This document shows positions 395-39,625 of a stretch of DNA of 39,854 bases, piece by piece. The position numbers and the translations under genes were made by a program. The notes under the pieces were generated by a model that searched no databases, had not been told where the DNA came from, and saw only the letters and a program-made list of their open reading frames with translations. The first letter of the stretch is position 1. The number at the start of each line of letters is the position of its first letter. Source of the stretch: Kayfunavirus LI10P1; the sequence record OZ035803.1; one strand, given 5' to 3'.

Positions 395-844
395 ATGCTC
401 GAATTTTTAAAGAGAGCGGCTCCGTGGTTACTTGCAGCAGTGATGTTTGCTGGTGGCTACCACACCGCTAACAATAAGTGGGAGGCTAAGGTCAATGCAG
501 AATACACCTCGAATCTTAAGGCATCGGAAGATACAAGGCTTGCTGTCCAAGCTGAAGTCAACAAAGTGTCCAAACGGTTTCAGGACGAAATGTCCTCGTT
601 GGAAGGCAGCACTGATAGGATTATTGCTGACCTTCAGTCTGACAATAAGCGGCTGCGCATCCGAGTCAAACCAACGAGTGGAACCACGCAAAGTGACGGT
701 CGATGCGTCATTGATGGTTACGCCGAACTTGACGAACGAGATGCTAAACGTCTTATCGCCATCGGAGTGAAAGGAGACAAGTGGATTAAGGCCCTTCAGG
801 ACACTGTGAGAGCCTTGCAGCAAGATAAGGAGGTGACGCATTGA
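395..844 (+). CDS. 18.5: i-spanin (Rz-like, T7 gp18.5-like)
   Basis: 149-aa ORF with hydrophobic N-terminal segment ([15 protein letters not shown]) followed by a charged, helical-looking periplasmic region; an embedded +1-frame ORF carries a lipobox; position between gene 18 and gene 19 as in T7. Confidence 0.8.
495..770 (+). CDS. 18.7: o-spanin (Rz1-like, T7 gp18.7-like) embedded in 18.5 in the +1 frame; start codon uncertain
   Basis: Embedded ORF contains [23 protein letters not shown] with lipobox LTISG-C (Cys codon 654-656) and a short mature part; the nearest in-frame ATG is at 495, which would give an unusually long pre-sequence, so the true start is unresolved. Confidence 0.45.
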   Translation: MQNTPRILRHRKIQGLLSKLKSTKCPNGFRTKCPRWKAALIGLLLTFSLTISGCASESNQRVEPRKVTVDASLMVTPNLTNEMLNVLSPSE

Positions 845-2900: not shown

Positions 2901-3059
2901 ATGGCAAAGACCAAAGCTGTCCTTAAAGCTCTGGCGACCAATCGAGCTACATACAGGTTTCTTGCTGCTGTTCTACTTGCTGCTGGCGTTACTGCTGGAA
3001 GTCAGTGGGTCGGGTGGGTCGAGACTCTCGTATGTTCTCTGGTCTCTCAGTGTAATTAA
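2901..3059 (+). CDS. 19.5: Small membrane protein (T7 gp19.5-like)
   Basis: 52-aa ORF not in the supplied track (below its length cut-off), RBS AGGAGG 2886-2891; MAKTKAVLKALATNRATYRFLAAVLLAAGV.. resembles T7 gp19.5 (..RVTYRFLVVL..) as recalled; last gene before the genome right end as in T7. Confidence 0.6.
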   Translation: MAKTKAVLKALATNRATYRFLAAVLLAAGVTAGSQWVGWVETLVCSLVSQCN

Positions 3060-3128
3060 CGCAATCATAGTAACGATTCATGAGCGGAAGACCTAAGGTC
3101 AGTACGTGGATAAAGACTCACTCTACTG

Positions 3129-3270
3129 ACCTTAGCTACTGTAGGTCAAGGACTTTAGGTAACACCTTAATAGAAGCTCACTTAGGGTCATCCTACTTAT
3201 TGGTCTATCCTAGTGTCGCCTGACCTACGGTCCTTGACCTACAGTAGCTGCCACCTACGGTCACTCGATG
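3129..3270. repeat. Short repeats (CCTAC[A/G]GT[C/A]) left of the predicted terminal repeat, i.e. right genome end
   Basis: Direct copies at 3224-3232 (cctacggtc), 3238-3246 (cctacagta), 3254-3262 (cctacggtc), plus an inverted copy in gctactgtaggtcaagg near 3140-3156. Confidence 0.5.
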
Positions 3271-3298
3271 AGTTTTGGACCAAAAGTTTGAGACCACA

Positions 3299-3478
3299 TC
3301 TCACAGTTCAAGAACCTCAAGTCTCCCCATAGGCCCTCTTTCAGTCCAGACAAAGGCCCTACCCCCAGTCTATCATAAGGCTGGACCGATGGTCAAGACG
3401 TTAGGTCAACGATAGGTCTAGGCTATGGCTGGAGGTCAGGACGATAGGTAGGGACTATGGGTCTGCCTCTGAGTCCCT
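3299..3478. repeat. Predicted direct terminal repeat (single copy in this circular assembly); physical left end at about 3299
   Basis: TCTCACAGTTCAAGAACCTCAAGTCTCCCCATAGGCCC at 3299 parallels the T7 left-end sequence TCTCACAGTGTACGGACCTAAAGTTCCCCCATAGGGGG; ..CTCTGAGTCCCT ending at 3478 parallels the end of the T7 repeat (..CTCTGTGTCCCT). Boundaries are by analogy only. Confidence 0.45.
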
Positions 3479-4415: not shown

Positions 4416-4922
4416 ATGGAACGTAACGCTAACGCATACTATGAGCTGCTGGCTGCAACCGTTGAGGCATTTATCGAGCGTATTCAGTACGACCACCTGA
4501 CTCAAGATGACGACTACAGCGATGCGCTGCATGAGGTCGTAGGCGGTCAGGTCCCGCACTATTACCACGAGATTTTCACGGTGATGGCTGCTGATGGTAT
4601 AGACCACGAGTTCGAAGACTCTGGGCTGATGCCTGAAACCAAGGACGTAACGCGTATCCTACAAGCTCGCATCTATGAGGCGCTTTATAACGATGTGTCT
4701 AATAGCTTGGATGTAGTCTGGTTTGAGGATGAAGAGGCAGACGAAGAGGATGAATATTGGGTAGTTGACGCTAAAACAGGCGCAATAATTGTGCAAGCTG
4801 TAGCTCTTGAGGTCGCTACTGCATGTGCCAAGGTTAACTATGCGGCAGGTCGCCACCTGAAGGTGGAAGACATCAATGATAACGTAGTGTTCGACCCTGC
4901 GGCTGAGGACTGCGAGCGATGA
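4416..4922 (+). CDS. ocr: Ocr-like DNA-mimic anti-restriction protein (T7 gp0.3 homolog) with a C-terminal extension
   Basis: Residues about 20-115 align with T7 Ocr as recalled ([43 protein letters not shown] versus T7 [43 protein letters not shown]); acidic stretch [10 protein letters not shown]; about 50 extra C-terminal residues; RBS GAGAGGA. Confidence 0.85.
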
Positions 4923-5878: not shown

Positions 5879-6204
5879 TGAACAAGTCATACGGGATTAA
5901 TCTGGTACACTCTATGGACGCAGAAATGAACATGTTAAGCCTACTGGCTACCGGGTATCGTCACGGAACGTCAAGTCACACCGCACGTCAACAGCAGGAG
6001 CGGGACCGTGTACTACAGGCGCGACTCCGGGCAGAGGGCCATAAGTCCGAACTGATGTGTCTGGCGTATGGTGGACGACCAATCACCGACGATGGTAAAC
6101 TTCTGGTATCAGGCTGGAAGGCGATAGACCAACGGTCAACCATCAAGCACACGACCAAAGGTGACTTCAGTCATCTTCACGCTAACCCACTGATATGCAA
6201 GTAA
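5878..6204 (+). CDS. Hypothetical early protein (108 aa), last gene before the RNAP gene
   Basis: ATG overlaps the previous stop (TAATG); no similarity to the T7 0.7 kinase as recalled; position corresponds to T7 genes 0.6-0.7. Confidence 0.55.
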   Translation: MNKSYGINLVHSMDAEMNMLSLLATGYRHGTSSHTARQQQERDRVLQARLRAEGHKSELMCLAYGGRPITDDGKLLVSGWKAIDQRSTIKHTTKGDFSHLHANPLICK

Positions 6205-6301: not shown

Positions 6302-8983
6302 ATGAGCGTCATCTCTATTGACAAACACGACTTCTCTGATGTGTCGAACGCCATTGAGCCGTTTAACCTGCTGGCTGACCACTACGGGCAAGACCTTGCA
6401 GTCAAACAGCTTCAGCTTGAGCATGAGGCATATACAGAAGGCGAGCGACGTTTCATCAAGAACCTTGAGCGGCAGACTGAGCGCGGGGAACTGGCAGACA
6501 ATCAGGTCGCCAAGCCTTTGATGCAGACTCTGGTCCCTAAGATTGCGCAAGCCGTCAGGGAGTGGCACGAAGGCCTAGACGGGAAGCTGTCAACCTCGCG
6601 TCCTAGCGTAGCGTTCACCATGTTGAGCACTGAAGAGAAGGCCGTAAAGGACCGCTCTATGCGCATCTCCTGTGAGTCCGCTGCGGTTATCATACTGAAG
6701 GTCATACTCTCCAAGCTGGTCAAGCCTGAAGGGATACCGATTACACCGATGGCCTCCGCGATAGGTCGCACACTTGAGGACGAAATCCGCTTCGGTCGCA
6801 TCCGTGACAAAGAGAAGGAGCACTTCAAGAAGGCGATAGCTGAGAACCTGAACAAGCGAGCTGGGGCATCCTACAAGAAAGCCTACATGCAAGCGGTCGA
6901 GGCGTCCATGCTGGAGCAAGGCCAACTGGAAGATGCATGGGGGACTTGGAGTCCTACAGAGGCTGTCCACGTTGGCATCAAGATGCTCGAGATTGTCATC
7001 CAGTCAACACAACTGGTCGAGCTTAAGCGGTACGGTGCTGGTAATGCAGCGGCTGACGTAGAGATGGTCCACCTGTCAGACTTCTGGGTCAAGAAGATGG
7101 CACAACGAGGATTCAGCCTTGCGGGTATCGCTCCAGTCTACCAGCCTTGCGTCGTTCCACCTAAGCCGTGGACTGGTGTCGTAGGTGGTGGGTACTGGGC
7201 CAAAGGTCGCAGACCGTTACCATTGATTCGCTTAGGGTCTAAGTCTGCGGTAGCACGTTATGAAGACGTATACATGCCTGAAGTCTATGACGCTGTGAAC
7301 ATCATTCAGAATACACCTTGGAAAGTTAACAAGAAGGTATTGGACGTGGTGAACATGGTCGAGAAGCTGAACAACACGCCTATTAATGACATCCCTCAGA
7401 TGGAACCGCTGAAGCCTGAGGACTATGCTGGTGAAACCGAGGAGGAACTCAAGGCATGGAAGAAGGCTGCTGCTGGTATCTATCGCCGCGAGAAGGCCAG
7501 ACAGTCACGCAGATTGTCCATGAGTTTCATCGTATCACAGGCCAACAAGTTCTCACAGTTTAAGGCCATCTGGTTCCCGTACAACATGGATTGGCGAGGT
7601 CGTGTCTACGCTGTCCCGATGTTCAACCCTCAGGGTAACGACATGCAGAAGGGTCTACTGACTCTGGCGGTCGGAAAGCCTATCGGGGCGGATGGTTTCA
7701 AATGGCTTAAAGTCCACACCGCCAACTGCGCGGGTGTCGATAAGGTAACCTTTGAGGAGCGTATCAAATGGGTGGAAGACAATCACGAGAACATTCTGGC
7801 AGCAGCCAAATCACCGATGGACAGCATCGAGTGGTGGGGGAGTATGGACAGCCCCTTCTGCTTCCTAGCGGCTTGCTTCGAGTATTCTGGGGTGATGAAC
7901 CATGGCTTGACCTACAATTGCTCACTTCCGATTGCCTTCGACGGCTCGTGTTCGGGGATTCAGCACTTCAGCGCGATGCTGAGGGACCACGTAGGCGGAC
8001 ATGCAGTGAACTTAACGCCGTCTGGTCAGGTGCAGGACATCTACCGTATAGTCTCAGACCGTGTGTCAGACCAGTTGAAAGAGCTATTACTGAGCGGTAC
8101 GGACGACGAGCTGGTGACCGTAGAGGACAAGAAGACTGGGGAAATCAGCGAACGCCTGAAGCTTGGGACCAAGAGTCTTGCGCGTCAGTGGCTGACATAC
8201 GGTATGTCACGCAAGGTCACTAAGCGTTCAGTCATGACTCTGGCATACGGGTCGAAAGAGTACGGATTCGCAGACCAAGTTTACGAGGACATCGTGATGC
8301 CAGCGATTGACTCAGGGTCTGGCGCTATGTTCACTGAACCAAGCCAAGCGTCTCGCTTCATGGCAAAGATGATTTGGGAAGCTGTGAGTGTGACAGTAGT
8401 TGCTGCGGTTGACGCGATGAAGTGGCTTCAAGGTGCTGCCAAGCTGCTGGCTGCTGAGGTGAAGGACAAGAAGACTGGAGAAATACTGAAGCCTTGCCTT
8501 CCGGTACACTGGGTCACACCTGATGGGTTCCCGGTCTGGCAGGAATACCGCAAGAAGGATACCACTCGTCTGAACCTGATGTTCTTAGGGTCCTTCAACC
8601 TTCAACCTACGGTCAACAAAGGTACGAAGAAAGAGCTGGACAAGCACAAGCAGGAGTCAGGCATTAGCCCTAACTTCGTCCACTCACAAGATGGTAGCCA
8701 CCTGCGGAAGACTGTAGTCCACACTCACCGCAAGTATGGCGTGATGTCATTCGCAGTGATTCACGATAGCTTCGGGACCATCCCTGCTGACGCTGAGTAT
8801 CTGTTCCGTGGTGTCCGTGAGACGATGGTCGAGACATACCGCGATAACGATGTGCTGCTTGACTTCTACGAGCAGTTTGAATACCAGCTTCATGAAAGCC
8901 AGCGCGACAAGTTGCCTGAGCTTCCGAAGAAAGGTAAACTGAATATCGAAGACATCTTGTCTTCAGACTTTGCATTCGCTTAA
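6302..8983 (+). CDS. 1: T7-type single-subunit DNA-dependent RNA polymerase
   Basis: 893-aa ORF collinear with T7 RNAP over its whole length (FNLLADHYG, RFGRIRDKEKEHFKK, PVYQPCVVPPKPWTG, WFPYNMDWRGRVYAV, LPIAFDGSCSGIQHFSAMLRD, TLAYGSKEYGF, HSQDGSHLRK, IHDSFGT, C-terminal FAFA). Confidence 0.97.
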   Translation: MSVISIDKHDFSDVSNAIEPFNLLADHYGQDLAVKQLQLEHEAYTEGERRFIKNLERQTERGELADNQVAKPLMQTLVPKIAQAVREWHEGLDGKLSTSRPSVAFTMLSTEEKAVKDRSMRISCESAAVIILKVILSKLVKPEGIPITPMASAIGRTLEDEIRFGRIRDKEKEHFKKAIAENLNKRAGASYKKAYMQAVEASMLEQGQLEDAWGTWSPTEAVHVGIKMLEIVIQSTQLVELKRYGAGNAAADVEMVHLSDFWVKKMAQRGFSLAGIAPVYQPCVVPPKPWTGVVGGGYWAKGRRPLPLIRLGSKSAVARYEDVYMPEVYDAVNIIQNTPWKVNKKVLDVVNMVEKLNNTPINDIPQMEPLKPEDYAGETEEELKAWKKAAAGIYRREKARQSRRLSMSFIVSQANKFSQFKAIWFPYNMDWRGRVYAVPMFNPQGNDMQKGLLTLAVGKPIGADGFKWLKVHTANCAGVDKVTFEERIKWVEDNHENILAAAKSPMDSIEWWGSMDSPFCFLAACFEYSGVMNHGLTYNCSLPIAFDGSCSGIQHFSAMLRDHVGGHAVNLTPSGQVQDIYRIVSDRVSDQLKELLLSGTDDELVTVEDKKTGEISERLKLGTKSLARQWLTYGMSRKVTKRSVMTLAYGSKEYGFADQVYEDIVMPAIDSGSGAMFTEPSQASRFMAKMIWEAVSVTVVAAVDAMKWLQGAAKLLAAEVKDKKTGEILKPCLPVHWVTPDGFPVWQEYRKKDTTRLNLMFLGSFNLQPTVNKGTKKELDKHKQESGISPNFVHSQDGSHLRKTVVHTHRKYGVMSFAVIHDSFGTIPADAEYLFRGVRETMVETYRDNDVLLDFYEQFEYQLHESQRDKLPELPKKGKLNIEDILSSDFAFA

Positions 8984-12358: not shown

Positions 12359-13057
12359 ATGGCTAAAGAGCAACTGAAGACTTTCACCACTCCGGTAGCT
12401 GGTATCGTTGAGCCTTACGCATGGCTGAACAGAGCAGACACCAAGTTTAACGAGCGTGGTGAGCATAAGGTTAACCTGACATTCAACCTGAGCGACCCGA
12501 AGGTCCGTAAGATGATTGATGTCTTACAGAAGATTCACGACGATGCGTATGCGAAAGCACTTGCAGACCACGAGAAGAACCCACCTCAGGTTCAGCGTGG
12601 CAAGAAGCCTATTGAACCACGAGAAGGCGACATGCCGTGGATTGAGAATGGTGACGGTACTGTTACCCTGAAGTTAAAATGCTTTGCGTCTTACCTTAAA
12701 GATGGCAAGTCAGAGCCTATCGTATTACGGTTCTACGACACCGATGCTAAACGCATCCGTGACGTCCCGAATATTGGCGCTGGGTCTAAGCTGAAGGTCA
12801 AGTTTAAAGTCCTGCCGTTCAAGTGGAACGCTGCGACGGGTGCAAGCGTTAAGCTCCAGCTTGAGTCCTGCCTTCTGGTAGAACTGAAGGAGTGGAAAGG
12901 TGATGGTAATGGTGGCGATGGTGGCTGGGGCGATGATGAAGACCTCGGTACTGGCTACAAAGCGTCAACCGATGGTGACTTCGGGTCTGATGACTTCGGT
13001 GACGATGGTTCCGAAGGTGGGGATGACTCCAACTCTGGTGGCGATTACGACTTCTAA
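12359..13057 (+). CDS. 2.5: Single-stranded DNA-binding protein (T7 gp2.5-like)
   Basis: 232 aa; EPYAW, GKKPIEPREGDMPW, GSKLKVKFKVLPFKWNAATGASVKLQLES, and an acidic C-terminal tail ending ..DYDF as in T7 gp2.5. Confidence 0.92.
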   Translation: MAKEQLKTFTTPVAGIVEPYAWLNRADTKFNERGEHKVNLTFNLSDPKVRKMIDVLQKIHDDAYAKALADHEKNPPQVQRGKKPIEPREGDMPWIENGDGTVTLKLKCFASYLKDGKSEPIVLRFYDTDAKRIRDVPNIGAGSKLKVKFKVLPFKWNAATGASVKLQLESCLLVELKEWKGDGNGGDGGWGDDEDLGTGYKASTDGDFGSDDFGDDGSEGGDDSNSGGDYDF

Positions 13058-13509
13058 TGGCCCAATGGTCTGCAAAACGGGGGCACTCTGTGGGTGCCTA
13101 CCGCTCTGGACTTGAAGCCAAGAACCAGCAGTGGCTGGAACAGAACGGCGTCAAAGCGGAGTACGAAAGCCATTATATCAACTATGTGATTCCGGCTTCC
13201 GACCACAAGTACACACCAGACTTTATCCTTCCCAACGGTATCATCGTTGAGACCAAAGGTATCTTCGATAGTGATGACCGTAAGAAGCACCTTCTGGTAC
13301 GAGAACAGCACCCAGAGTTAGACATTCGGTTCGTGTTCTCAAGTTCCCGCTCCAAGTTATACAAAGGGTCTCCGACCACGTATGGCGCATGGTGCGAAAA
13401 GAACGGCTATAAGTATGCCGATAAGTTCATCCCGGTTGAGTGGCTCAGAGAGGCGACTGTACGTCTGCCTTCCGGTATCCTCATCCCCAAGAAGAAAGGA
13501 GTTAAGTGA
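13057..13509 (+). CDS. 3: Endonuclease I (Holliday-junction resolvase, T7 gp3-like)
   Basis: 150 aa; GAYRSGLE, YVIPASDHKYTPDFILPNGIIVETKG, SDDRKKHLLVREQHPELDIRFVFSSSRSKLYKGSPTTYG collinear with T7 endonuclease I. Confidence 0.93.
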   Translation: MAQWSAKRGHSVGAYRSGLEAKNQQWLEQNGVKAEYESHYINYVIPASDHKYTPDFILPNGIIVETKGIFDSDDRKKHLLVREQHPELDIRFVFSSSRSKLYKGSPTTYGAWCEKNGYKYADKFIPVEWLREATVRLPSGILIPKKKGVK

Positions 13510-13979
13510 TGACTCAGAAATATAGACTTAAGGTTAGTTGCTGCGGGTGGCCTAAAGGTACTATCGTTACGAAATGTGCGAAAGACCCGTGTACAGCATC
13601 TGGAATTGTTCTGGTGGAATCCACTGAGCGTGGCCACTTCAAGCACGGAGCAGCAGGTTATAACACTCAGCCTGACGGTATGTGGGGGGCGTGGGTTGCA
13701 AAAGCACATCTTGAGGAAATCGTAGAGGATAAACCTCAAGTCATGCCAGCTTCGAGCGTACCGCCTGTGACTGTGAAGCGTGAAGTCCTGACCATCAACA
13801 AGATTGGTGTAGGGCAGACGTTCATCGTCCACGGTAAGCCTGACGAAGTGTACGTGAAGATTAGCAACTCTCACGTCTTCAACCATAAGTTGCTCCAGAT
13901 GCACACGACTGACGCACATCGCTTCCAGTCACATCTGAATCTAGTGGTCGTAGAATTGGTGGTGTACAATGGTAAGTAA
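13509..13979 (+). CDS. Hypothetical protein (156 aa) inserted between endonuclease I and the amidase
   Basis: ATG overlaps the gene 3 stop (TGATG) with GGAG 8 nt upstream; 3' end overlaps the start of gene 3.5 by 11 nt; N-terminal Cys-rich segment (SCCGWPKG..KC..PC); no homolog recognised; T7 has no gene here. Confidence 0.6.
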   Translation: MTQKYRLKVSCCGWPKGTIVTKCAKDPCTASGIVLVESTERGHFKHGAAGYNTQPDGMWGAWVAKAHLEEIVEDKPQVMPASSVPPVTVKREVLTINKIGVGQTFIVHGKPDEVYVKISNSHVFNHKLLQMHTTDAHRFQSHLNLVVVELVVYNGK

Positions 13980-21523: not shown

Positions 21524-21946
21524 ATGCTACCATATCTCAACTCACGCGAAGGTCGCCACATGTGCGCTTGTCGCCTCTGGGAAGACGGGCAGTCTAACTT
21601 CAAGTCATTCGAGGACTTCAAGGCTCATACTTACCGTATTGCTGACGAGTTCGACGGTGAAGAGTACACAATCTACGATGTCTCAGGTCAACCAGTAGCG
21701 TATCTCTACATGCTGGCTACCACATCTTGGCACCGACCGACTCCCGGTCTTGACCTTTCAATCGTCGCTATTCGTCGTGACTCGCAGTCCTCCCGCAAGG
21801 TTCTTGAGACTGTCAGGTACATCATAGACGAAGAGTGCAAGCGTTGGGGTCTTGGCTGGTATTCTCGTGTCAAGCATGTTTCCGGGTCGGTAGACATCGT
21901 AACAACCAAGTGCGTTAGCACGAACAAGGAGATTAACCGTGGGTAA
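21524..21946 (+). CDS. Hypothetical protein (140 aa; position of T7 gene 7)
   Basis: ORF with weak RBS; no motif recognised; start could instead be the internal Met at 21560. Confidence 0.5.
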   Translation: MLPYLNSREGRHMCACRLWEDGQSNFKSFEDFKAHTYRIADEFDGEEYTIYDVSGQPVAYLYMLATTSWHRPTPGLDLSIVAIRRDSQSSRKVLETVRYIIDEECKRWGLGWYSRVKHVSGSVDIVTTKCVSTNKEINRG

Positions 21947-25925: not shown

Positions 25926-26188
25926 CGACCTTCAAGGCCCTCTCTACAGAGGGTCCTACCTTAGAGACGTATAGTTCTACGGTGGGAACCAGCCTGAAGG
26001 TTGACTTCCCTGAGCTTTCAGATGTGACCGATTGGTCGCTGCTTGAGGTGACTACGCCTGATGGTGTTAGCTACTCCCGTAGAACCAACAGTCTCTACTT
26101 CAAGGCCACCTCTGGCGTGGAAGGTCTGGTGATTGTTGGGTATGACGGTACGCCTGTGCGTTCCTTCAACGTATCTTTCACAAACTAA
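25850..26188 (+). CDS. 10B: -1 frame extension giving a minor capsid protein (gp10B-like) via programmed -1 ribosomal frameshift near 25898-25904
   Basis: The -1 frame relative to 10A is open from 25850 to stop 26186-26188 (my own codon-by-codon reading); the heptamer G-GTT-TTC (25898-25904) lies 7 codons before the 10A stop; a Tphi-like terminator follows at 26195. Confidence 0.5.
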   Translation, partial: VRYGSRWSASRSSRRTGFHSGVSGLTTFKALSTEGPTLETYSSTVGTSLKVDFPELSDVTDWSLLEVTTPDGVSYSRRTNSLYFKATSGVEGLVIVGYDGTPVRSFNVSFTN

Positions 26189-26194
26189 TTGAAA

Positions 26195-26232
26195 CCCCTT
26201 GGGTGCCTTCGGGTGCTTGAGGGGTTTTTTTT
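26195..26232 (+). terminator. Intrinsic terminator (T7 Tphi-like) after the capsid gene
   Basis: ccccttgggtgcc-TTCG-ggtgcttgagggg: 13-pair stem (with G-U pairs) capped by a UUCG tetraloop, followed by T8; parallels T7 Tphi (AACCCCTTGGGGCCTCTAAACGGGTCTTGAGGGGTTTTTTG). Confidence 0.8.
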
Positions 26233-26348: not shown

Positions 26349-26915
26349 ATGGCTCAATACATTCCACTGAATGCTAACGATGACTTAGATGCCATCAACG
26401 ATATGTTAGCAGCTATCGGTGAACCAGCAGTCCTACAGCTTGACGAAAGTAACGCTGACGTCTCGAACGCTCAACGTATCCTGCATCGTGTCAATCGTCA
26501 GGTCCAAGCTAAAGGCTGGAACTTTAACATCAACGAAGCTGCTGTCCTGACACCTGATGTCCAAGACAATAGGATTCGATTCCTGCCGTCTTACCTTCGG
26601 GTCATGACTGCTGGTGCTACCAGTTACTACAGCAACATGGGGGGCTATCTCTATGACCTGTCCACTCAGTCTACGACCTTCACTGGACCAATTACAGTCG
26701 AACTGGTGGAGATGAAACCGTTCGCTGAGATGCCTGTAGTATTCCGTGACTACATCGTTACCAAGGCTAGCCGTGAGTTCAACGCTAAGTTCTTCGGTAG
26801 CCCAGAGTCTGAACTGTACCTTCGTGAGCAGGAAGCAGAACTCTACCAGCAGGTGATGGAGTACGAGATGGACACTGGTCGCTACAACATGATGTCCGAC
26901 ATCGGGAGGGACTAA
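26349..26915 (+). CDS. 11: Tail tubular protein A (T7 gp11-like)
   Basis: 188 aa; DMLAAIGEPAV, NAQRILHRVNRQVQAKGWNFNI, FRDYIVTKASREFNAKFFGSPE, MEYEMDTGRYNM collinear with T7 gp11. Confidence 0.93.
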   Translation: MAQYIPLNANDDLDAINDMLAAIGEPAVLQLDESNADVSNAQRILHRVNRQVQAKGWNFNINEAAVLTPDVQDNRIRFLPSYLRVMTAGATSYYSNMGGYLYDLSTQSTTFTGPITVELVEMKPFAEMPVVFRDYIVTKASREFNAKFFGSPESELYLREQEAELYQQVMEYEMDTGRYNMMSDIGRD

Positions 26916-27068
26916 TGGCTAGTCACAACCACGAAACTGGTGAGGTTAGAGGTCTTCTCTGTAGGCACTGCAATAAGTCTCTAGGAGGTTTCAAGGACTC
27001 CCGTGAGATTCTACTAAACGCTGCTAAGTATCTGGAGGACACATGCCGCTTATCACACAAAGCATAAA
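26916..27068 (+). CDS. Mini endonuclease VII-like (zinc-ribbon HNH-type) ORF, 50 aa
   Basis: MASHNHETGEVRGLLCRHCNKSLGGFKDS.. matches the core signature of the T4 endonuclease VII family (HxHxTGxxRGLLCxxCNxxLG); ATG follows the gene 11 stop (TAATG); 3' end overlaps the start of gene 12 by 26 nt; below the track cut-off. Confidence 0.5.
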
Positions 27069-29400
27069 AAATCTTAAAGGTGGCATTAGCCAGCAGCCTG
27101 ACATACTGAGGTTCTCAGACCAAGTCGAGGCGCAGGTTAACTGCTGGTCATCAGAGAGTGATGGCCTCCAGAAGCGTCCACCTACAGTCTTCAAGCGACG
27201 TCTTAACATCGACGTTGGGAGCAACCCTAAGTTCCACCTGATTAATCGTGACGAGCAGGAGCAGTACTATATAGTGTTCAATGGGTCCAACATTCAGGTA
27301 GTTGACTTGAGCGGTAATCAATACTCAGTGTCCGGTGCGGTAGACTACGTTAAGTCCTCCAACCCACGAGATGACATCCGTGTCGTTACCGTGGCAGACT
27401 ATACGTTCGTCGTTAACCGTAAGGTTGTCGTCAAAGGTGGAAGCGAGAAGTCACACTCTGGTTATAACCGCAAAGCACGAGCTTTAATTAACCTGCGTGG
27501 TGGGCAGTATGGTCGAACCCTTAAAGTGGGAATCAACGGTGGCGTTAAGGTCTCGCATAAGCTACCAGCAGGTAATGATGCCGAGAATGACCCACCTAAG
27601 GTGGACGCTCAAGCCATTGGGGCAGCTCTGAGAGACCTTCTTGTTGCTGCTTACCCTACCTTCACGTTCGACCTTGGGTCTGGCTTCCTGTTAATCACTG
27701 CCCCTTCAGGGACTGACATTAACTCAGTGGAGACGGAGGATGGTTACGCTAACCAGCTAATCAGCCCAGTACTCGACACAGTGCAGACAATCTCTAAGTT
27801 ACCTCTTGCAGCTCCAAATGGGTACATCATTAAGATTCAAGGTGAGACCAACAGTAGCGCCGATGAATACTACGTGATGTATGACTCCAACACTAAGACG
27901 TGGAAGGAGACAGTGGAGCCGGGAGTTGTCACTGGGTTCGATAACACCACAATGCCACACGCTCTGGTACGACAATATGATGGCTCCTTTGAGTTCAAGA
28001 CTCTGGATTGGTCCAAGCGTGGTGCTGGTAACGATGACACAAACCCTATGCCTAGCTTCGTGGATGCTGCGATTAATGATGTGTTCTTCTACAGGAACAG
28101 GCTAGGGTTCTTGTCGGGTGAGAACGTAATCATGAGCCGTTCAGCCAGCTACTTTGCGTTCTTCCCTAAGAGTGTGGCGACATTGAGTGATGCTGATCCT
28201 ATTGATGTAGCTGTAAGTCACCCTCGAATCTCAATCCTTAAGTATGCCGTTCCGTTTAGCGAGCAGCTACTACTTTGGTCGGATGAGGTTCAGTTCGTGA
28301 TGACAAGCTCTGGGGTCCTTACCTCGAAGTCTATCCAGCTTGATGTAGGCTCAGAGTTTGCCCTAGGTGACAATGCCAGACCGTTCACTGTAGGACGCTC
28401 AGTCTTCTTCTCAGCTCCTCGTGGGTCATTCACCAGTATTAAGCGATACTTCGCTGTAGCTGATGTATCTGATGTGAAGGATGCAGATGATACAACTGGT
28501 CACGTACTGTCCTACATCCCTAACGGGGTGTTTGATATTCAAGGTACAGGTACTGAGAACTACATCTGCGTCAACTCTACAGGTGCATACAACCGAATCT
28601 ACATCTACAAGTTCTTGTTTAAGGACGGAGTACAGCTTCAAGCCTCTTGGTCACACTGGGAGTTCCCTAAAGATGATAAGATTCTGGCGTCTGCTTCTAT
28701 TGGCTCTACCATGTTCATCGTTCGTCAGCACCAAGGAGGGGTAGACATTGAGCACCTTAAGTTCATCAAGGAGGCAACTGACTTCCCCTCAGAGCCATAT
28801 AGACTACACATTGACTCCAAGGTGTCTATGGTAATTCCAATTGGCTCATATAATGCTGACACCTATAAGACTACGGTTGACATTGGTGCTGCTTATGGTG
28901 GCAACGCTCCGTCTCCCGGTCGGTACTATCTGATTGACAGTCAGGGTGCTTATGTGGACCTTGGGGACTTGTCCAGTATCTCTACTGTGATTACCCTCAA
29001 CGGCGATTGGTCAGGACGTACAGTGTTCATCGGACGGCCCTATCTGATGTCCTACAAGTTCTCACGGTTCCTGATTAAGATTGAAGATGATAGTGGCACT
29101 CAGTCTGAAGACACTGGTCGTCTACAGCTTCGTCGGGCTTGGGTCAACTACAAGGACACTGGCGCTCTGAGACTAATTGTCAGAAACGGTGAGCGGGAGT
29201 TCGTGAATACCTTCAACGGGTACACACTTGGTCAGCAAACCATAGGGACTACAAACATTGGTGACGGGCAGTATCGCTTCGCTATGAATGGTAACGCATT
29301 GACCACGAGTCTAACCTTAGAGTCCGACTATCCTACCCCAGTGTCAATCGTTGGTTGTGGCTGGGAGGCGTCATACGCTAAGAAAGCTCGTTCCGTTTAA
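27043..29400 (+). CDS. 12: Tail tubular protein B (T7 gp12-like)
   Basis: 785 aa; ITQSIKNLKGGISQQPDILRF, HLINRDEQEQYY, MVTVADYTFVVNR, NDVFFYRNRLGFLSGENVIMSR, ILKYAVPFSEQLLLWSDE, RLQLRRAWVNY, IVGCGWE collinear with T7 gp12. Confidence 0.96.
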   Translation: MPLITQSIKNLKGGISQQPDILRFSDQVEAQVNCWSSESDGLQKRPPTVFKRRLNIDVGSNPKFHLINRDEQEQYYIVFNGSNIQVVDLSGNQYSVSGAVDYVKSSNPRDDIRVVTVADYTFVVNRKVVVKGGSEKSHSGYNRKARALINLRGGQYGRTLKVGINGGVKVSHKLPAGNDAENDPPKVDAQAIGAALRDLLVAAYPTFTFDLGSGFLLITAPSGTDINSVETEDGYANQLISPVLDTVQTISKLPLAAPNGYIIKIQGETNSSADEYYVMYDSNTKTWKETVEPGVVTGFDNTTMPHALVRQYDGSFEFKTLDWSKRGAGNDDTNPMPSFVDAAINDVFFYRNRLGFLSGENVIMSRSASYFAFFPKSVATLSDADPIDVAVSHPRISILKYAVPFSEQLLLWSDEVQFVMTSSGVLTSKSIQLDVGSEFALGDNARPFTVGRSVFFSAPRGSFTSIKRYFAVADVSDVKDADDTTGHVLSYIPNGVFDIQGTGTENYICVNSTGAYNRIYIYKFLFKDGVQLQASWSHWEFPKDDKILASASIGSTMFIVRQHQGGVDIEHLKFIKEATDFPSEPYRLHIDSKVSMVIPIGSYNADTYKTTVDIGAAYGGNAPSPGRYYLIDSQGAYVDLGDLSSISTVITLNGDWSGRTVFIGRPYLMSYKFSRFLIKIEDDSGTQSEDTGRLQLRRAWVNYKDTGALRLIVRNGEREFVNTFNGYTLGQQTIGTTNIGDGQYRFAMNGNALTTSLTLESDYPTPVSIVGCGWEASYAKKARSV

Positions 29401-29476: not shown

Positions 29477-29947
29477 ATGTATATTCGTAAAGCTACGGAA
29501 CCGGATGTCCACTACTTTCTGTGGCATCTTTCAGCAGATGATGTTAATGAGTGCAAAGCAAACTACGGGTCAACCGTTGGTCTCTCTGAAAGACTGCTTA
29601 AGCACCTATCTCCGTCATCTGTGGTTTTAACGAACGGTGTAGGCGAAGTGTTTGCCTATGGTGGAAACCAAGGGGATAACGTATGGTTCTTGACTTCAGG
29701 TCTGGTCAACAAGCTGAGACCTAAAGAGAAGCGAGAGTTCATAAAGCGTATCTCTGAGTACAGGGACTTAATGTTAGACCAATACGGGACCATCTGGAAC
29801 TACGTGTGGTCAGGCAATAAGTCTCACATTAAATTCTTGAAGTTGCTTGGGGCTAAGTTCCATGATGATTGGACTATCAGCCCGGTAACTGGTGAGCGTT
29901 TTCAATTATTCACTATCTCTAAGGAGGACGTATGTGTGAACCCGTAA
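29477..29947 (+). CDS. 13: Internal virion protein (T7 gp13-like, by position)
   Basis: 156-aa ORF with RBS TAAGGAG, directly downstream of the phi13-like promoter and overlapping the start of gene 14; called mainly by synteny. Confidence 0.65.
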   Translation: MYIRKATEPDVHYFLWHLSADDVNECKANYGSTVGLSERLLKHLSPSSVVLTNGVGEVFAYGGNQGDNVWFLTSGLVNKLRPKEKREFIKRISEYRDLMLDQYGTIWNYVWSGNKSHIKFLKLLGAKFHDDWTISPVTGERFQLFTISKEDVCVNP

Positions 29948-36769: not shown

Positions 36770-39625
36770 ATGTCCACGATTACACAATTCCCTTCAGGAA
36801 ACACTCAGTACAGGATAGAGTTCGACTACCTAGCCAGAACGTTTGTTGTTGTTACGCTGGTGAATAGCTCTAACCCTACCCTGAACCGTGTACTGGAAGT
36901 TGGTCGAGATTACCGATTCCTTAATCCAACGATGATTGAGATGTTGGCTGACCAATCAGGTTTCGACATCGTTCGTATTCACCGTCAGACTGGAACTGAC
37001 TTAGTGGTAGACTTCAGGAATGGCTCAGTGTTGACAGCTAGTGACCTGACCAATTCAGAGCTTCAGGCTATCCATATTGCAGAAGAAGGTCGAGACCAAA
37101 CGGTTGACTTAGCGAAGGAATATGCCGATGCTGCTGGTAGCTCTGCTGGCAACGCTAAGGATAGCGAGGACGAAGCACGACGAATCGCTGATAGTATCAA
37201 GGCATCTGGTCTAATTGGCTATATTACCCGTCGCTCCTTCGAGAAAGGCTTCAACGTTACAACATGGAACGAGGTCCTGCTATGGGAAGAGGATGGTGGG
37301 TATTACCGCTGGGATGGTGGACTGCCAAAAACAGTACCTGTTGGTTCAACTCCTGAAACGTCTGGCGGCGTTGGTTTGGGTGCGTGGGTTAGTGTTGGTG
37401 ATGCGTCATTGCGTGCCGATATTGCAAAACCAACCGGAACAAATTTAATCGGCGCAAAAAACGGGGAAACACTGTCTACAGTCCTGGGTAGCCGTTGGGC
37501 TAATTCGGGCGCAGATAAAAAAGAAATTCGTTTTGACCTGCCATTACTATTCCCAGATTACGATGCTATTCTGGCGGCACACTCTGACTGGACGTTTATT
37601 TATCCAGGGTCATTCTGTATCGGGGATGATGGCAATATCTACATTGCATATGGCCCAAGTAACAACGCAGCGACGGAACGTTTCGTTGTAGTTTACTCAG
37701 GTGAAGGTGAATACTTAGGGTATCTCCAGACTAATAATGGAGGCACCGGGGTAAATGGTTCTGCGGTATCCGAGGGGATTATCGTAACCAATTACTATGG
37801 TTCACTTAAGTTATTCCTGGGATCCTACGATGGTAACTTAGCTGAGTTTGATATCTCAGCAGTGACCTACGGCACCACGATTAGCTATACAGCGTTACAC
37901 CAAGTAGGTCTGTATAACCAGTTCTCCTTCCACAATGGAATGTGGGCAGTTGAACAGGCCATCCCATCATTGGGTATTAACCGACAACGTAATGTTATTG
38001 CATACTTCAACTCCGCATTTGCATTAACTGGTTTCACGGAATTTTCTCCGTATGATGCTGGATACATCACGTCAACTACTACTGATTACGGGTCACTTCA
38101 AACTAAGCGACAAGCAATCTGTTTAGCTCCCGGTGTTTTGATCATGGCATTTGGTGGTGTTTACATTACAGGAACAACTGTAGAAGCGCCTACTAATTAT
38201 CAGGGGGTAAAAGCATTTAGCACTGATGGGCACAAAATGGTAGAGGCAGTAATACCCCCTACTGATTTTATTAGTGTTTTGGATGCTAAAGGGTTAATGA
38301 CCTCTCGTATAGAGAATGAGGGTGTTTGCTATTCAAATGGTGAAGTATTTACTTTATGGATTTATAACAATAGAACTGCCTCAAATGCGTATACTAACGG
38401 TATCCTGATTACTAAAGAATATTCGAACTCCCCGGATTTGGATTTTTCTGGGGCGGTTACGGTATCCCCCGGTTACGATACTGTTCGAATGGCTTCTGGG
38501 GTTTACCCTCGTATTCTCGCGGGTGACAAACTCTATAATCCGTTGACTGGTGCTGCCATGACTTCAATGTCAGAAGTATTGGACTTTATGCGCCTGTCTG
38601 GGCAGAAGGAAGTTACTATCTATACGTCAAGCACCGGTCTTACAGATCTGGATGGAGTTGCCTACCCAATTGGGATAGAGCTTCATATCAGCAACCTGAA
38701 TAACCTGAGCTTCTCTATAGATCAGACTGGGCCAATTACCCGTAAGACTGTGCGCGTTACTTATGACACTTCCGGTTATACCGTAATTACTGGGGCTATC
38801 GGTTTAGAGACTTATCGCTTAACCCTGAATAATACTGACTCTGGTGCATTAACCCAAGGTCGAATTGCAGCTAGGGCTTTCGGTAATAAAACTTTAACCG
38901 AATCAGAACAGATTCTTGTCCTCGATCAACAAAGTTCCGCATCTGCACATTCTCTTATCTTAGGTGGTGGATCGTCGGTATTTAAGAGTGCTACGACTAT
39001 TAGTTTTGCTACTAATCCGTCGCCCGCAGCCGTAGGCGGCACTATTCGATGGCGTTTAGATGATACATCTTTACGTCCATACACAGATAACGCTTACAAT
39101 TTAGGCGACCCAGCATTACGTGTGGCTCAAGTCTTCGCAGCGATTGGTACTATTAATACGTCCGACTCCCGTGAAAAAACTTACCCGTTTGAAATATCGG
39201 ATGATATCCTTGATGCCTGGGGCGACGTGCAGATAATCACGTACAAGTGGTTATCTTCTATTGCGGCTAAAGGTGAAGATTCTGCTCGTTGGCATTTCGG
39301 GGTAATTGCCCAGCAAGTTCGTGATGCCTTCGTAAAGCATGGTTTGGATGGTACTACCTTCGGTCTGCTTTGCTATGACGAGTGGGAAGATGAGTATGAA
39401 CCTGAGTTCGTTGATGAGGTTATCACTGTTAATATTGATGGTGTAGATACCGAAGTTACCCGTCAAGTGGAAACCGGTAATACCATACTTACTAGAGCTG
39501 CCGGTAATCGCTGGGGCATTCGTCCAGATCAGTGTTTCTGGTTGGAGGCCGCTTATCAGCGACGTCGCTGCGACAGGATTGAAACACGACTGGATAAACT
39601 TGAAGGTTGTGGAGGTAGAGGCTAA
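36770..39625 (+). CDS. 17: Tail fibre / tailspike (T7 gp17-like N-terminal adaptor fused to a foreign receptor-binding module with a C-terminal chaperone-like domain)
   Basis: 951 aa; residues 1-150 align with the T7 gp17 tail-attachment domain (EFDYLARTFVVVTL, DYRF, DLVVDFRNGSVLTASDL, QAIHIAEEGRD); residues about 150-951 are unrelated to the T7 fibre shaft, AT-richer with different codon usage, and end with an SDSREK..WHFGVIAQQV..C-terminal region resembling S74-type autoproteolytic chaperone domains. Confidence 0.9.
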   Translation: MSTITQFPSGNTQYRIEFDYLARTFVVVTLVNSSNPTLNRVLEVGRDYRFLNPTMIEMLADQSGFDIVRIHRQTGTDLVVDFRNGSVLTASDLTNSELQAIHIAEEGRDQTVDLAKEYADAAGSSAGNAKDSEDEARRIADSIKASGLIGYITRRSFEKGFNVTTWNEVLLWEEDGGYYRWDGGLPKTVPVGSTPETSGGVGLGAWVSVGDASLRADIAKPTGTNLIGAKNGETLSTVLGSRWANSGADKKEIRFDLPLLFPDYDAILAAHSDWTFIYPGSFCIGDDGNIYIAYGPSNNAATERFVVVYSGEGEYLGYLQTNNGGTGVNGSAVSEGIIVTNYYGSLKLFLGSYDGNLAEFDISAVTYGTTISYTALHQVGLYNQFSFHNGMWAVEQAIPSLGINRQRNVIAYFNSAFALTGFTEFSPYDAGYITSTTTDYGSLQTKRQAICLAPGVLIMAFGGVYITGTTVEAPTNYQGVKAFSTDGHKMVEAVIPPTDFISVLDAKGLMTSRIENEGVCYSNGEVFTLWIYNNRTASNAYTNGILITKEYSNSPDLDFSGAVTVSPGYDTVRMASGVYPRILAGDKLYNPLTGAAMTSMSEVLDFMRLSGQKEVTIYTSSTGLTDLDGVAYPIGIELHISNLNNLSFSIDQTGPITRKTVRVTYDTSGYTVITGAIGLETYRLTLNNTDSGALTQGRIAARAFGNKTLTESEQILVLDQQSSASAHSLILGGGSSVFKSATTISFATNPSPAAVGGTIRWRLDDTSLRPYTDNAYNLGDPALRVAQVFAAIGTINTSDSREKTYPFEISDDILDAWGDVQIITYKWLSSIAAKGEDSARWHFGVIAQQVRDAFVKHGLDGTTFGLLCYDEWEDEYEPEFVDEVITVNIDGVDTEVTRQVETGNTILTRAAGNRWGIRPDQCFWLEAAYQRRRCDRIETRLDKLEGCGGRG

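Follow-up and report, generated by a model that had tools for sequence, protein, structure and literature searches.

The window analysed here is the whole 39,854-nt stretch of record OZ035803.1, which constitutes the complete, circularly permuted genome of Kayfunavirus LI10P1, a T7-like member of the Autographiviridae, and begins in the packaging and lysis genes. Landmarks along it are the genes for the small terminase (30–293), the large terminase (841–2604), ocr (4416–4922), the RNA polymerase (6302–8983) and a tail fibre with a Peptidase_S74 domain (36770–39625). Two coding-strand ORFs, at 13506–13979 (157 aa) and 21524–21946 (140 aa), had no Pfam match, and the same was found for a 68-aa ORF after the major capsid gene (25982–26188), which was also called in the related contig loci L017, L018 and L019. 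A strong terminator-like hairpin, with 17 pairs and a T run, is positioned at 26191–26228 and is presumably the T-phi equivalent.

The interval between genes 11 and 12

The initial annotation had placed a 50-aa ORF between the tail tubular genes 11 and 12. This ORF is real, with an ATG start on the plus strand and the translation MASHNHETGEVRGLLCRHCNKSLGGFKDSREILLNAAKYLEDTCRLSHKA, and extends over 26915–27067, the previously given coordinates 26916–27068 being shifted by +1. The identities proposed for the two flanking genes were upheld by Pfam. The features of the interval are as follows:

26349–26915, plus strand: gene 11, tail tubular protein A, 188 aa (Pfam Tube PF17212, E 7.4e-46; same annotation in relatives)
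26904–26910, plus strand: Shine-Dalgarno-like GGGAGGG, 4 nt upstream of the ATG of the mini-ORF (read from the sequence)
26913–26915, plus strand: stop codon TAA of gene 11 (read from the sequence)
26915–27067, plus strand: 50-aa chimeric ORF, DUF3850 start plus endonuclease C-terminus (profile match, alignment and breakpoint computation)
26915–26930, plus strand: DUF3850-derived segment ATGGCTAGTCACAACC, encoding MASHN (equal to the first 16 nt of the 75-aa DUF3850 ORF of phages yong1, KM02 and LM33_P1)
26924–26930, plus strand: deletion junction with the 7-bp microhomology CACAACC (exact breakpoint computation against KM02 and yong1)
26931–27067, plus strand: 3' end of an EndoVII-type putative homing endonuclease gene, residues 102–146 of a 146-aa protein (100% identity to KM02)
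27034–27038, plus strand: GGAGG, putative Shine-Dalgarno sequence of gene 12, inside the endonuclease remnant (read from the sequence)
27043–29400, plus strand: gene 12, tail tubular protein B or nozzle, 785 aa (Pfam Phage_nozzle PF25675, 1093 bits, E 0)

In agreement with the initial description, the ORF starts right at the gene 11 stop and overlaps the gene 12 start: its ATG (26915–26917) shares the A with the stop codon of gene 11 (TAATG, 26913–26917), and its last 25 nt coincide with the beginning of gene 12 (ATG at 27043). The GGGAGGG at 26904–26910 would act as the ribosome-binding site of the mini-ORF. Identical bases precede the DUF3850 gene in LM33_P1, KM02 and yong1, and in phiHAO2-2, where the site is empty, they precede gene 12 itself. 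Since this DUF3850 ribosome-binding site is retained and the TAATG arrangement couples the ORF to gene 11, the 50-aa peptide is probably made. At the other end, the stretch with the GGAGG and the ATG of gene 12 is kept in every allele that carries the endonuclease or a remnant of it.

An RNA element in place of a gene was considered and rejected, as the folding z-score was +0.39 and the ORF contained no Rfam match. No promoter-like or terminator-like site was detected within the ORF.

Endonuclease VII homology and the probable CACAACC deletion

Against the Pfam family Endonuclease_7 (PF02945), the mini-ORF scored 52.3 bits (gathering cut-off, 23.6) with an E-value of 5.4e-14, and three PHROG 'endonuclease VII' families matched with E-values of about 1e-14. 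Judged by these profile matches, the ORF is homologous to the family by descent, and the resemblance is not a matter of chance. The significant Pfam match is nevertheless confined to profile positions 43–81 of 82, i.e., to the C-terminal half instead of the complete domain, and the PHROG matches likewise always involved the C-terminal part of longer profiles. The mini-ORF thus encodes one half of the domain instead of a compact but complete version. Accordingly, the zinc-ribbon signature that the initial annotation had quoted was present to the letter and had been attributed to the right family, but it encompasses only half of the Cys4 site.

The counterpart of this half domain was found in a 146-aa protein of Escherichia phage KM02 (XFA12277.1) and of Hafnia phage vB_HpaA_yong1, also known as 'Ca' (ORF37; QBQ73019.1), which matched positions 3–81 of the 82 of the same Pfam profile with an E-value of 2.2e-20. 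Its gene occupies the position of the window's mini-ORF, directly upstream of gene 12 and with the same 25-nt overlap. Its last 45 codons are identical to those of the window at the protein level in both phages and at the DNA level in KM02, with two synonymous differences between the remnant and yong1, and the last 144 nt of the mini-ORF agree in every base with the 3' end of the KM02 gene. Unlike KM02 and yong1, the window is devoid of endonuclease residues 1–98 and of the DUF3850 gene beyond its first 16 nt.

The origin of the ORF was worked out from a five-way alignment and exact breakpoint computation. Agreement of the window with KM02 and yong1 runs from gene 11 to the end of ATGGCTAGTCACAACC and resumes at CACAACCACGAAACTGG, the DHNH codons of the endonuclease, from where it continues across gene 12; the 527 bp that separate these two stretches in the relatives are missing from the window. 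The heptamer CACAACC occurs once in the window and twice in the full-length relatives, 527 bp apart and at both breakpoints, with one copy in DUF3850 codons 4–6 and the other in the DHNH codons of the endonuclease. Both copies are read in the phase CAC-AAC-C (S-H-N-L in DUF3850 and D-H-N-H in the endonuclease), so that the fusion is in frame. Moreover, the two copies are the widest-spaced direct repeat of at least 7 bp in the 655-bp insert, so that no other such repeat pair would allow a larger deletion. Read from this alignment, the 50-aa ORF is the MAS(HN) of DUF3850 joined to (HN)HETGE...SHKA of the endonuclease, residues 102–146. A tblastn search of the window with the full endonuclease and DUF3850 returned nothing besides the stump, and the missing half was therefore not translocated within it.

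We infer that the event was a deletion. The reverse direction, an insertion, was rejected as implausible because a 527-bp insert would have had to complete two unrelated genes at once. The ancestor would have been arranged as in KM02 and yong1, with the 146-aa gene between the 75-aa DUF3850 gene and gene 12, and the 3' end of the former would have supplied the ribosome-binding site of gene 12 and overlapped its start codon. The 527-bp deletion between the CACAACC copies would then have removed DUF3850 except for 16 nt, along with the first 101 codons of the endonuclease, probably through replication slippage or single-strand annealing. T7-type phages are known to lose DNA between short direct repeats in these ways, and such losses are well documented in T7. 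The stump would have persisted since the Shine-Dalgarno sequence and start codon of gene 12 lie in it, and since the deletion would be recent or neutral.

The residues that the ORF has kept and lost were mapped via the alignment of the 146-aa parent to the structures of T4 endonuclease VII (T4 EndoVII; PDB 1E7D) and the restriction endonuclease Hpy99I (PDB 3FC3). The parent aligns with Hpy99I residues 134–196 with an E-value of 9e-10 and weakly with T4 EndoVII residues 19–70 with an E-value of 0.07. The equivalences are as follows:

Parent C81 and C84: T4 C23 and C26 (zinc ligands); deleted from the stump
Parent D99: T4 D40 (metal-binding); Ser3 in the stump
Parent H100: T4 H41; H4 in the stump
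Parent H102: T4 H43; H6 in the stump
Parent R (of EVRG): T4 R54; R11 in the stump
Parent C113 and C116: T4 C58 and C61 (zinc ligands); C16 and C19 in the stump
Parent N117: T4 N62; N20 in the stump

The stump thus retains the two histidines, the arginine, the C-terminal CX2C and the asparagine (H4, H6, R11, C16, C19 and N20). The segment 26931–27067 provides the second histidine, the conserved arginine, the C-terminal CxxC and the asparagine, together with the C-terminal helix. The N-terminal CX2–4C of the Cys4 zinc site is absent, as the C81-Q-I-C84 of the parent falls inside the 527-bp deletion, and the metal-binding aspartate is lost as well: residue 99, Asp in the KM02 and yong1 proteins, is replaced by a serine from the DUF3850 reading frame, which converts VDHNH of the parent into ASHNH. 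Also missing are the N-terminal 96 residues of the parent, including a further Cys-rich segment, and these residues probably comprised DNA-recognition parts. In T4 EndoVII, the mutants D40N and D40A are inactive, as is the double mutant C26S+C58S, and C23S shows neither activity nor DNA binding; in F-CphI, C84S and D101N are inactive (PMC6083498). With two of the four zinc ligands, the metal-binding aspartate and the N-terminal residues gone, the peptide should have no nuclease activity and would thus be catalytically dead. An AlphaFold2 single-sequence model of the 50-aa peptide had a pLDDT of 66.5 and a pTM of 0.38, which was too poor for a fold search. Its residues 1–7, which include the H-N-H part, scored below 50, and this suggests that the N-terminal part of the predicted structure is not ordered.

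Junction forms and deletion alleles among relatives

A 1.4-kb query around the locus matched 211 phage records, mostly from Escherichia and Salmonella Kayfunavirus, at 90–97% identity. Reading the junction in annotated relatives and metagenomic contigs revealed five forms:

Form A: nothing between the genes, the gene 11 stop overlapping the gene 12 start (phiHAO2-2)
Form B: a 75-aa DUF3850/ASCH gene, annotated as 'RNA-binding protein'; the commonest form, in 165 records (LM33_P1)
Form C: DUF3850 plus the 146-aa 'endonuclease', which overlaps gene 12 by 25 nt (yong1, KM02 and contig loci L012–L016)
Form D: the 50-aa ORF (window)
Form E: the endonuclease alone (L017)

The 75-aa ORF matches Pfam DUF3850 with an E-value of 1.9e-19. 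At the DNA level, the endonuclease gene was found in only two of 50,697 phage records (KM02 and yong1), against about 211 for the locus and 165 for DUF3850. In L017, the 146-aa endonuclease (2989–3441) follows gene 11 immediately and has its own Shine-Dalgarno sequence, DUF3850 being absent, and gene 11 itself diverges at its 3' end, reading GGTCGAGAC in place of GGGAGGGAC. The junction does mark an insertion, as the initial annotation had considered, but as far as the alignments tell, a subsequent deletion, rather than the arrival of the endonuclease itself, gave rise to the present ORF.

The exact 50-aa protein and four variants with at least 90% identity are on record, in about 11 contigs. 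The carriers include contigs of about 39 kb in E. coli and Salmonella assemblies (WP_171930909.1 and ECQ4522523.1), and the variant at 90% identity, WP_171930909.1, is named 'hypothetical protein' or 'endonuclease domain-containing protein'. Outside the window, the stump junction was found only via exact-protein look-up in public assemblies, which yielded at least six further contigs (L006–L011), and the ORF is intact in at least seven contigs. The CACAACC junction is identical in L006, L007 and L009–L011, and one base off in L008 (CACAGCC). The contiguous junction was found in none of the 50,697 phage records and in no IMG/VR or JGI metagenome contig, which indicates that the stump allele is rare.

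Different stump haplotypes are matched by different full-length ones, with the window the same as KM02 across 144 nt and L009 the same as L012 and L013. Both flanking genes, 11 and 12, are mosaic in structure, and the stump alleles do not form a single clade. Gene 11 of the window is LM33_P1-like, with 10 differences over 564 nt, compared with 47–52 from other alleles and 66 from the divergent L017. This pattern would fit either recurrent deletion at the same repeat or recombinational spread of a single deletion.

Changes private to the stumps comprise three nonsynonymous (N5S, I32N and D42G) and one synonymous, against about four nonsynonymous and 13 synonymous in the same codons of the full-length alleles. 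This contrast suggests relaxed constraint on the stump, at a Fisher p-value of 0.09 and on very few changes.

A second, independent in-frame deletion of the endonuclease gene was identified, in which 273 bp are lost between CTGTAGAC and CTGTAGGC, leaving a 55-aa ORF with the 3' end kept (MVHDKCGLEFREGAKGSCLNC, with RHCNK... after the junction). It is present in L018 (1696–1863) and L019 (1656–1823), in a background without DUF3850. This allele emerged from a homologous-protein search with the 50-aa query, which returned three proteins and missed the 146-aa cluster. As the search for deletion alleles was protein-based and would have missed out-of-frame remnants, the in-frame state of both alleles is not evidence of selection. 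The full-length endonuclease itself forms a cluster of 30 variants, two of which, P0020 (DRNH for DHNH, with loss of the invariant first histidine) and P0019 (C6R), carry changes that are likely inactivating and would represent point-mutational decay of full-length copies. Seen across these alleles, the 50-aa stump, the 55-aa allele and the P0020 and P0019 variants are together the stages expected of the decay of a homing endonuclease gene (HEG).

The parent gene and the fate of its remnant

The family and the distribution of the 146-aa parent point to a free-standing HEG of the EndoVII or 'DHHRN' type. The gene is small and free-standing, and it is sporadically present or absent at a fixed site between conserved genes of closely related genomes. 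It resembles F-CphI and the other 'DHHRN' free-standing homing endonucleases with an EndoVII catalytic motif (PMC6083498), with which it shares the CX2C ... DH(N)H ... R ... CX2C-N arrangement and the sporadic occurrence as a small free-standing gene between conserved phage genes. Of this family pattern, the stump preserves H, H, R, CX2C and N, but neither the N-terminal CX2C nor the Asp. The beta-beta-alpha-Me fold family is common to the parent, T4 EndoVII (gp49; PDB 1EN7, 1E7D and 2QNC) and Hpy99I (PDB 3FC3), and compared with these enzymes half of the catalytic domain is missing from the stump. Restriction/homing and resolvase clades of EndoVII-type nucleases have been described (PMC6083498), and by its alignments the parent is closer to the restriction/homing branch of Hpy99I than to the Holliday-junction resolvase branch of T4 EndoVII. 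The window encodes its own T7-type resolvase, endonuclease I (13057–13509; Pfam Phage_endo_I, E 2.8e-81), which would make an EndoVII resolvase redundant. This enzyme, the absence of an EndoVII gene from most relatives and the likeness to Hpy99I together make a resolvase role for the parent less likely.

Also in line with a HEG, many distant EndoVII-like genes were observed at other intergenic sites of the structural modules of T7-like phages, such as after gene 13 in L008, L017 and phage FE44, the Endonuclease_7 ORFs concerned lying at 6018–6153 of L008 and at 6317–6441 of L017. A gp13.5-type ORF has been reported in the position after gene 13 in phage EcoDS1. The window has no ORF at this point (29932–29947), where genes 13 and 14 overlap directly. 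In addition, the Rz-like lysis gene of the window (395–844) directly abuts the large terminase gene (841–2604), which is the endonuclease-less form of that site. In phage yong1/Ca, that site is occupied by a 143-aa HNH homing endonuclease gene, which was lost from laboratory stocks of the phage through a 397-bp deletion (PMC8861465). The same paper gives the 146-aa gene of yong1 only as 'endonuclease', extra relative to phage ST31 (PMC8861465).

The mini-ORF is, with a probability of about 0.85, the decayed stump of a free-standing EndoVII or 'DHHRN' HEG that was cut down by the 527-bp deletion between CACAACC repeats. The suggestion in the initial annotation of a homing endonuclease remnant within the structural module was borne out by comparison with the relatives. 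HEGs reportedly follow a cycle of invasion, decay and loss, as modelled by Goddard and Burt. The presence/absence polymorphism at one site and the truncated and point-mutated copies are shared with that cycle, of which the 397-bp loss in stocks of Hafnia phage Ca is a further instance and a precedent for HEG loss by deletion. The present case differs in that the deletion also took an unrelated neighbour, DUF3850, and gave rise to a chimeric ORF with a borrowed start.

Some observations run counter to decay. The same junction recurs in at least six further contigs that are mosaic and not monophyletic, so that it is not a one-off accident, and its persistence or recurrence could reflect selection; furthermore, H4, H6, R11, C16, C19 and N20 are retained behind good translation signals. 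The latter would fit the other suggestion of the initial annotation, namely a minimal nuclease or nicking enzyme. Such a functional beta-beta-alpha-Me enzyme would employ the two histidines, the arginine and the asparagine plus the CxxC as active site, perhaps as a dimer with a shared Cys4 site. The 52 bits against Endonuclease_7, the kept equivalents of T4 H41, H43, R54, C58, C61 and N62, the good Shine-Dalgarno sequence with coupling to gene 11, and the ORF being intact in at least seven contigs all speak for such an enzyme. This proposal is not supported, since the breakpoint analysis identified the ORF as an accidental in-frame fusion, produced by the deletion, of five DUF3850 codons and the last 45 endonuclease codons. 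Both N-terminal cysteines and the metal-binding aspartate, positions at which single substitutions cost T4 EndoVII and F-CphI their activity or DNA binding (PMC6083498), are gone, and so are the 96 N-terminal residues with the Cys-rich segment. The model confidence is low, with the H-N-H part below 50, and changes private to the stumps have arisen at motif positions (N5S) and in the helix (I32N). A working nuclease is thus very unlikely. Even less credit is due to a pure non-coding spacer, untranslated and open only for want of time for stop codons to arise. The identity of 144 nt to KM02 does leave no time for decay, and a frame has a one-in-three chance of staying open after an in-frame fusion, but given the DUF3850 Shine-Dalgarno sequence GGGAGGG and a start that overlaps the stop of the highly expressed gene 11 (TAATG), translation is the default expectation.

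Selection of the stump for a non-catalytic role deserves somewhat more weight than either of these and is still improbable. It might deliver ribosomes to gene 12 through coupling or, as a disrupted site or a dominant-negative peptide, counter re-invasion by an intact HEG. The identical junction in several mosaic backgrounds would be accounted for, both deletion alleles that were found preserve the reading frame and run 25 nt into gene 12, and the gene 12 Shine-Dalgarno sequence lies inside the stump. EndoVII-type enzymes such as T4 EndoVII are dimers, which counts in favour of a dominant-negative effect. Against such roles, phages with the empty junction or with DUF3850 alone express gene 12 without a stump, the folding z-score and the lack of an Rfam match speak against a stable RNA structure that would mask the gene 12 start, and the in-frame bias may be an artefact of the protein-based search. 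The stump is also rare, being absent from the phage records, IMG/VR and the JGI metagenomes surveyed, and its few private changes are mostly nonsynonymous. A slightly smaller chance is assigned to outright domestication, in which the peptide, made at late-gene level, would poison the endonuclease of co-infecting relatives as a dominant-negative anti-homing factor, or in which a recurrent, selected 'escape' deletion at CACAACC would confer immunity. If true, either form would explain why one junction occurs in several mosaic backgrounds.

The decayed HEG remnant is a known kind of thing, a degenerate HEG, and introduces no new kind of enzyme or system. A Pfam 'Endonuclease_7' match on a 50-aa phage ORF should consequently not be read as a nuclease. 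The locus provides a base-by-base case of HEG loss from a T7-like structural module via a short-repeat deletion in which a neighbouring gene was lost too. The 3' stump would have been left, and would be kept, because the translation start of an essential downstream gene is embedded in the 3' end of the endonuclease, gene 12 having borrowed its ribosome-binding site and start from the HEG. Overall, the various junction forms between genes 11 and 12 of Kayfunavirus offer a natural setting well suited to studying how HEGs are gained, decay and are lost.
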